From the NCBI RefSeq assembly GCF_044324875.1, contig NZ_CP172185.1: a DNA stretch of 64,000 nucleotides. One strand, given 5' to 3'. Source of the DNA: Escherichia coli (GTDB lineage Bacteria > Pseudomonadota > Gammaproteobacteria > Enterobacterales > Enterobacteriaceae). The notes under the pieces were generated by a model that made no database searches, was not told where the DNA came from, and saw nothing but the letters and a program-made list of their open reading frames with translations. Shown piece after piece: positions 10,781 to 11,224 of this stretch (the first letter of the stretch is position 1; each line of letters opens with the position of its first letter). Position numbers and translations under genes: made by a program.

Positions 10781-11224
10781 GTGAACATAATACACTTGCG
10801 CTGTCTCTTCAGAATCAATCCCCTGGTCTGGTGCCTGCGGGCTGATGTTGCAGCAGAGCTAAGGTCGCTTAGAGGCTACTATCATTTATCCAATGGCATG
10901 GAATCGAAATTATTCGATACCCGCAGTATATATCGTGAACTGGGCGCAACGCTGAGTTACAACATGCGTCTGGGTAACGGTATGGAAGTTGAGCCGTGGC
11001 TGAAGGCGGCTGTGCGCAAAGAATTTGTCGATGATAACCGGGTGAAAGTGAATAATGACGGTAATTTTGTCAATGATTTGTCGGACAGACGTGGAATATA
11101 CCAGGCAGGTATTAAAGTCTCATTCAGCAGTTCGTTAAGCGGGCATCTCGGGGTGGGGTATAGCCATGGTGCCGGTGTGGAATCCCCGTGGAACGCGGTG
11201 GCTGGTGCGAACTGGTCGTTCTGA
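10781..11224 (+). pseudogene. ycgI: autotransporter beta-domain remnant
   Basis: 147-aa ORF ending ...AGANWSF with no passenger domain or signal peptide upstream. Confidence 0.6.

Follow-up and report, generated by a model that had tools for sequence, protein, structure and literature searches.

The stretch of DNA analysed here (64,000 nucleotides of an Escherichia coli chromosome, which we call the window) carries the gene order pdeG-ymgF-ycgH-ymgD-ymgG-ymgI-ymgJ-ycgI-minE-minD-minC, and it is the short interval between ymgJ and minE that concerns us. A mechanical ORF call finds there a frame of 147 codons, which a first-pass annotation, working from the sequence, had read as the terminal part of an autotransporter β-barrel and nothing else, lacking both passenger and signal peptide. 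What is this fragment, what was it once, and how did it come to be so short?

What lies between ymgJ and minE

The reading as the end of a barrel is borne out by two profiles, both above their cut-offs, in a search that might have returned no autotransporter homology at all. Pfam PF03797 (Autotransporter beta-domain) matches residues 34-125 to profile positions 152-254 of 255 (E = 1.6e-10; 41.6 bits, cut-off 26 bits), and NCBIfam TIGR01414 matches residues 34-147 to positions 319-432 of 432 (E = 4.1e-21; 75.5 bits, cut-off 16 bits). Both matches are far beyond chance, and together they cover only the last ~40% of a β-domain. The earlier description needs one refinement, which comes from comparison with the intact alleles described below: only 114 of the 147 codons (34-147) are autotransporter sequence, and codons 1-33 derive from a former untranslated leader that is open and in frame by chance. 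On direct reading of the sequence, the leader-derived N-terminus is not signal-like and holds no Sec signal peptide, and no strong Shine-Dalgarno sequence precedes the GTG; a promoter scan at the locus gave no signal above the shuffled background, and an Rfam search of 9000..13000 gave no match. At the other end, the aromatic ...NWSF, an ending typical of the β-signals of outer-membrane proteins, is kept in the ORF just as it stands at the C-terminus of the parent protein.

Table 1. Features of the window discussed in the text, numbered from its first nucleotide
Feature	Position	Strand	Description
ycgH fragment 1	4259..5851	+	aa 1-531; passenger with autochaperone
ycgH fragment 2	~5852..6456	+	aa ~532-733; first half of β-domain, after -1 frameshift
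IS21-family element	6456..9094	-	istA/istB, ISSso4-like; 2639 bp; inserted in ycgH β-domain
ycgH fragment 3	9095..9566	+	last 156 codons of β-domain (aa 732-887 at 9096..9563)
Retained 5' leader	10532..10880	+	349 bp; paralogous to ypjA upstream; holds frameshifted ymgJ and the 39-aa upstream ORF
39-aa upstream ORF	10726..10845	+	position conserved 5' of the min-locus autotransporter and of ypjA
147-aa ORF	10781..11224	+	GTG start; C-terminus ...AGANWSF; mechanical ORF call
Deletion junction	10880..10881 (10880 / 10881)	+	...GCTACT / ATCATTTATCC...; from base-by-base comparison of both flanks
ycgI proper	10880..11224	+	final 114 codons and stop codon from the ancestral AIDA-type autotransporter of the min locus; barrel strands 8-12, ...NWSF
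69-aa ORF	11344..11553	+	in ycgI-minE spacer
Two terminator-like hairpins	11565..11538 and 11320..11303	-	in ycgI-minE spacer
ycgV	48387..51254	-	955-aa autotransporter; Pertactin and full PF03797 (1-255/255)

The name ycgI, also given in the first-pass annotation, is supported by synteny with K-12 and by an identical junction. Strain MG1655 (NC_000913) annotates a pseudogene ycgI (b4521) between ymgJ and minE; its feature begins at the base equivalent to window position 10880, and the two regions are collinear over 1.3 kb at 94.9% identity. The interval 10300..11400 is 100% identical to that of strain MEW and 95-99% identical to that of almost every one of 5426 complete E. coli genomes. In MEW, the equivalent of 10880..11224 is marked by PGAP as a pseudogene, 'autotransporter outer membrane beta-barrel domain-containing protein, missing N-terminus', and the UTI89 homolog was handled as a pseudogene in a published screen (PMC6206680). 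In other words, 10880..11224 is the known and ordinary pseudogene ycgI, already annotated in K-12 and flagged automatically by PGAP; what we add to that status is the parent gene, the exact breakpoints and the allele frequencies.

Several small reading frames surround the remnant. ymgJ (10566..10784 and 10628..10765), which in K-12 encodes a small protein, falls within the former leader of the autotransporter; it is frameshifted in the window, with its C-terminal part in a different frame, and PGAP gives it as 'missing C-terminus' in MEW. The 39-aa upstream ORF has an amino acid identity (~87%) about equal to its nucleotide identity (~88%) and thus bears no sign of coding constraint; PGAP calls it variously an 'ATPase' or a 'hypothetical protein'. 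The Pfam content of ycgI fragments named 'ATPase' or 'ATP-binding component' is an autotransporter β-domain or nothing, and such names look like leftovers of an early mis-annotation in K-12. Downstream, the ycgI-minE spacer (11225..11589) varies unusually strongly, being 89.6-92.8% identical between E. coli lineages, as against about 99% for minE and minD, and it has no match in Rfam.

The parent gene and the deletion

Where did the 114 codons come from? A word-indexed protein search returned fragments only and no intact parent. The route to the parent ran through a partial protein at a contig edge (P0005, 256 aa), which lies directly beside minE and reaches further into the barrel than ycgI does, and then through DNA searches with its extra part. 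The next-nearest matches, at 50-52% identity, were set aside as sources of ycgI: P0040 sits at the yejO locus, and P0051 sits on an uninformative 4-kb contig; P0042 and P0043, near-identical to P0040 in sequence, are likewise not relevant to its origin.

The parent stands intact at the same place in other strains. In strain 2020CK-00188, it is a gene of 4677 bp encoding 1558 aa (PGAP 'AIDA repeat-containing protein') and in strain elppa4 one of 3387 bp encoding 1128 aa (PGAP 'YpjA/EhaD'), both of them between ymgG/ymgI/ymgJ and minE. The flanks of the elppa4 gene are 98.3-98.8% identical to the window, and both sides of the window's junction are collinear with the two loci at 88-99% identity. 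In the 1558-aa protein, 10 AIDA repeats and a Pertactin domain are accompanied by a Pro-rich linker and, at residues 1297-1536, by a complete β-domain (full PF03797). By blastn, the remnant matches the 2020CK-00188 locus (L004, 7427-7771) at 97.1% and the intact allele L013 (7610-7954) at 98.0%; its nucleotide identity to ypjA is 95.9-98.0%, beside 97-98% to the intact min-locus alleles. Indeed, the ypjA locus holds a paralogous counterpart (92.7% identity) of the entire unit, which extends from 377 bp before the start codon to ~10 bp beyond the stop. The parent of ycgI is, then, an AIDA-I-type (type Va) YpjA/EhaD-like adhesin that a minority of strains still carry intact at this locus. By descent, the remnant in the window belongs to the YpjA/EhaD lineage, as a fragment without the function of that family. 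Strain 2020CK-00188, whose min-locus autotransporter is the longest of the intact ones, has no ycgH, and its ymgF is followed directly by ymgD (L004 1414..2143).

How much of the barrel is left? An AF2 model of the parent translocator (301 residues; pLDDT 80, pTM 0.77) predicts a helix followed by 12 strands, and the remnant corresponds to residues 188-301 of that segment, that is, to predicted strands 8-12. The complete 12-stranded barrel with its preceding pore helix is absent from the remnant, by the profiles and by the model alike. By sequence, Vag8 and the BrkA beta-domain are the nearest relatives of solved structure.

Window positions 10300-10880 align 5' of the intact gene, and positions 10880-11400 align to its 3' end and the DNA downstream. 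The deletion that separates the two arrangements has its left end 29 nt before the start codon and its right end at codon 1014 or 1444, according to the allele compared; it measures 3071 bp against elppa4 and 4361 bp against 2020CK-00188. Because it starts 29 nt before the ATG, the AGAGGA Shine-Dalgarno is lost with the gene. The microhomology at the junction is 1 nt (T). When the window was searched throughout by tblastn with the 1558-aa parent, no passenger or other parent homology turned up near the locus outside the remnant, and the sole other match was ycgV at 25% identity. The mapping across 10300..11300 that the first-pass annotation had proposed was run in this way, and its statement that passenger and signal peptide are missing holds, neither having been found by the intact parent in 10300..10880. 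The retained leader is 87.8-87.9% identical to the DNA upstream of ypjA (in L003 and, for K-12, L018) and 96% identical to the leader of the intact elppa4 allele. The homology, the breakpoints and the intact alleles at the locus are all observed directly.

From these observations, we would reconstruct the following history. A full AIDA-I-type gene, a close paralog of ypjA/ehaD, would once have stood between ymgJ and minE. One illegitimate deletion, 3.1-4.4 kb in size, would then have taken out the 3' end of the leader (29 nt, Shine-Dalgarno included), the start codon and signal peptide, the entire passenger with its AIDA repeats and pertactin region, the Pro-rich linker, the pore helix and strands 1-7, leaving behind strands 8-12 and the upstream leader. 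With its start site and signal peptide missing and with five of 12 strands, the product could be neither exported nor closed into a barrel, and what is left would sit idle and decay. We consider it very probable that 10880..11224 is just this, the dead remnant, in situ, of a min-locus AIDA-type adhesin gene that was lost through one deletion.

Alleles of the locus and competing histories

The contiguous ycgI arrangement at the ymgJ-minE locus is the common state, found in 4468 of 5426 complete E. coli genomes (about 82%). In 422 of them (about 8%), an autotransporter 5' end is joined to the ymgG-side flank, and these 5'-intact genes encode AIDA-type autotransporters of 1128-1558 aa; in 713, O157:H7 included, a longer 3' part is joined to the minE-side flank. 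In the species-representative genome collection, a degenerate back-translated ycgI pattern had no match, and an exact ycgI 24-mer hit no Escherichia record and two stray contigs only (L011, URTG01000020.1, and L012, JAIJJM010000675.1). Their bins are labelled 'uncultured Clostridiales' and 'Collinsella sp.', and the contigs are probably mis-binned E. coli DNA.

Seven ycgI alleles, six aligned from diverse strains and that of K-12, share an identical junction. Among the aligned alleles, remnants of other lineages carry three independent 1-nt frameshifts: one common to K-12, B and strain Z1323, one common to strains 81009 and GN05064, and one found in 81009 only. PGAP marks the ycgI alleles that bear them 'frameshifted'. 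None of the three occurs in the window, in MEW or in GMF054, and the absence of these 1-nt deletions is the only reason that the window has a 147-aa ORF at all. The shared junction and the independent frameshifts are again direct observations. Shortened against the intact homologs that occupy its locus in some strains, and disabled further by mutation in other lineages, ycgI is by its sequence a pseudogene, and from this we infer that it has no function.

The pattern of substitution calls for some care. Identity between lineages is 90-95% (5-10% divergence) in the leader, the remnant and the ycgI-minE spacer, as against 98.5-99.9% (0.1-1.5% divergence) in flanking ymgD/ymgG/minE/minD; the remnant has diverged as much as the spacer next to it. 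Remnants are 94-95% identical among themselves, and intact alleles are 97-99% identical. Yet the remnant has 18 synonymous against 16 non-synonymous substitutions overall, and 15 against 13 among variants absent from four intact alleles, each a small sample set against ~1:3 expected under neutrality; pairwise dN/dS has few substitutions per pair of alleles to work with. We would attribute the synonymous excess to the small sample and to probable recombination with intact alleles or with ypjA. The remnant of the window's clade is closer to the intact allele of its sister strain elppa4 (98-99%) than to other remnants (95%), and it shares the junction with those other remnants nonetheless. The window and elppa4 differ by 2-4% along a tract limited to the leader-to-spacer interval, with flanks on either side that are at least 99.6% identical, and the intact (elppa4) and deleted (GMF054) states occur in strains with near-identical flanks. 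These comparisons suggest that homologous recombination has been reassorting the DNA on both sides of one old junction. A deletion that recurred at a hotspot was considered as the source of one junction in divergent backgrounds, and we reject it, as no repeat flanks the junction and the microhomology amounts to only 1 nt; with so little to guide the ends, the same deletion is unlikely to have arisen repeatedly. One event, then, would have spread by descent and recombination.

Might the ORF, all the same, be a gene? One could imagine that the 147-aa product (136 aa in other strains) works as a small protein, for example as a C-terminal fragment whose β-signal could contact the BAM complex or trigger the DegS envelope-stress pathway. 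Its frame is still open in the window's lineage, its aromatic ...NWSF end resembles a β-signal, its alleles vary synonymously in excess, and the leader kept with it encodes YmgJ, annotated as a protein in K-12. We nevertheless find this very improbable: the first 33 residues come from an old untranslated leader and bring no signal peptide; at least three independent frameshifts break the frame in major lineages, K-12/B and 81009 included; the GTG has no strong ribosome-binding site and the promoter scan stayed at background; and five strands, on the modelled fold, would be incapable of closing a barrel. A third account would have it that the short ycgI is no more than an incomplete reading of a longer gene, the repetitive AIDA passenger having collapsed in sequencing or assembly. 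The passenger is highly repetitive, with its 10 AIDA repeats, but the breakpoints lie outside those repeats, in the leader and the β-domain, and the same junction is found in thousands of independently finished genomes, that of K-12 MG1655 among them, so that we see virtually no chance of an artefact.

A further difference concerns history rather than function. ycgI may never have been a full gene at this site: the leader and 3' end of ypjA could have been copied in by ectopic recombination, already truncated, the full-length min-locus copies of some strains being later arrivals. The unit described above, reaching 377 bp upstream of the start codon and ~10 bp beyond the stop, does form a discrete block paralogous to the ypjA locus, and the confinement of divergence to the leader-to-spacer tract between GMF054 and elppa4, with their near-identical flanks, does indicate allele exchange by recombination. 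The outer boundaries of that block are, however, the same in intact and truncated alleles, which makes an internal deletion in a resident full copy the simpler history. Moreover, a longer copy at this site has been truncated differently in O157:H7, in association with IS1203, which shows that full copies resided there and decayed independently. We give a copied-in fragment very little credence, and the fragment in the window would be non-functional under that history too.

The arrangement allows one further thought. The 349-bp leader and the 345-bp 3' remnant could serve as homology arms through which a full-length adhesin gene is re-installed or removed, the partners being other strains' alleles or the ypjA paralog. 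The flanks at least 99.6% identical between the two states, the confined 2-4% tract and the same junction in remnants that differ by 5% would all fit such an exchange. We think it unlikely, on balance, that the arms work in this way; if they did, the min-locus adhesin would be a presence/absence switch at the level of the population and not a one-way loss.

Decay of adhesin genes in the window and beyond

The first-pass annotation had counted three autotransporter loci in the window in different states of decay, and the count agrees with what we find: ycgI is cut down by deletion, ycgH is split and ycgV is intact. The last keeps its full 955 aa with the Pertactin domain and a complete β-domain, and tblastn gives its match to itself together with an extended N-terminal leader. 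The three fragments in which ycgH had been described are real, and a frameshift and an IS21 insertion are their causes. Compared with the intact ycgH of GMF054, an A-run near 5849 has lost 1 nt (GGCAAAAAC -> GGCAAAAC), and this loss makes the break between fragments 1 and 2; the IS21-family element is flanked by 6-bp target duplications, CTCGCT, at 6450-6455 and 9095-9100. An element of the same type sits at another site, in the ymgJ leader, in strain Z1323CEC0013. The passenger of ycgH (4327..5926) has no megablast alignment to the ycgH of the otherwise near-identical MEW, which PGAP names 'ECIAI39_1904 family autotransporter adhesin', and this mismatch indicates an allelic replacement of the passenger between close relatives.

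What does all this amount to? The significance is small, ycgI being already annotated as a pseudogene in K-12. The by-products are a base-exact account of how the gene was lost and the identification of its parent, which still stands in full length beside minE in about 8% of complete genomes. For annotators, the lesson is that the 147-aa ORF (136 aa elsewhere) should not be called a protein and that the legacy names 'ATPase' and 'ATP-binding component', on the neighbouring small ORFs as on the ycgI fragments, are not to be trusted. The locus is also a tidy case in which adhesin genes have decayed by several independent routes (deletion, frameshift and IS insertion) within 50 kb.

The fragment can be set beside its relatives. 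Its retained 3' 345 nt are 96-98% identical to those of the YpjA/EhaD adhesin and of the full-length min-locus paralog; unlike them, it has no start codon, signal peptide, AIDA repeats, pertactin region, linker helix or strands 1-7. ycgH (b4491), 1.3 kb away, is likewise a decayed type Va autotransporter, distantly related to the ycgI parent (tblastn at E<=0.01 finds no match in it); it decayed by frameshift and IS21 insertion with all of its coding sequence retained, whereas ycgI decayed by deletion. O157:H7 also has a remnant of the ycgI parent at this site beside minE, a 283-aa ORF next to IS1203, and it represents an independent, IS-associated truncation that kept nearly the whole β-domain (about 251 parent codons) and in which the upstream ymg genes are gone. 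PGAP labels that 283-aa ORF a normal CDS, and in the O157 strain 180-PT54 (L008 1610..3754) IS1203, with ompT beyond it, has replaced the ymg genes together with the autotransporter's 5' part. There is also the ycgI of K-12 (b4521), with the same ymgI-ymgJ-ycgI-minE synteny, the same 5' boundary and the same deletion junction as the window; the K-12/B allele differs in an extra 1-nt deletion that breaks its frame (344 bp), whereas the allele in the window, at 345 bp, is un-frameshifted.
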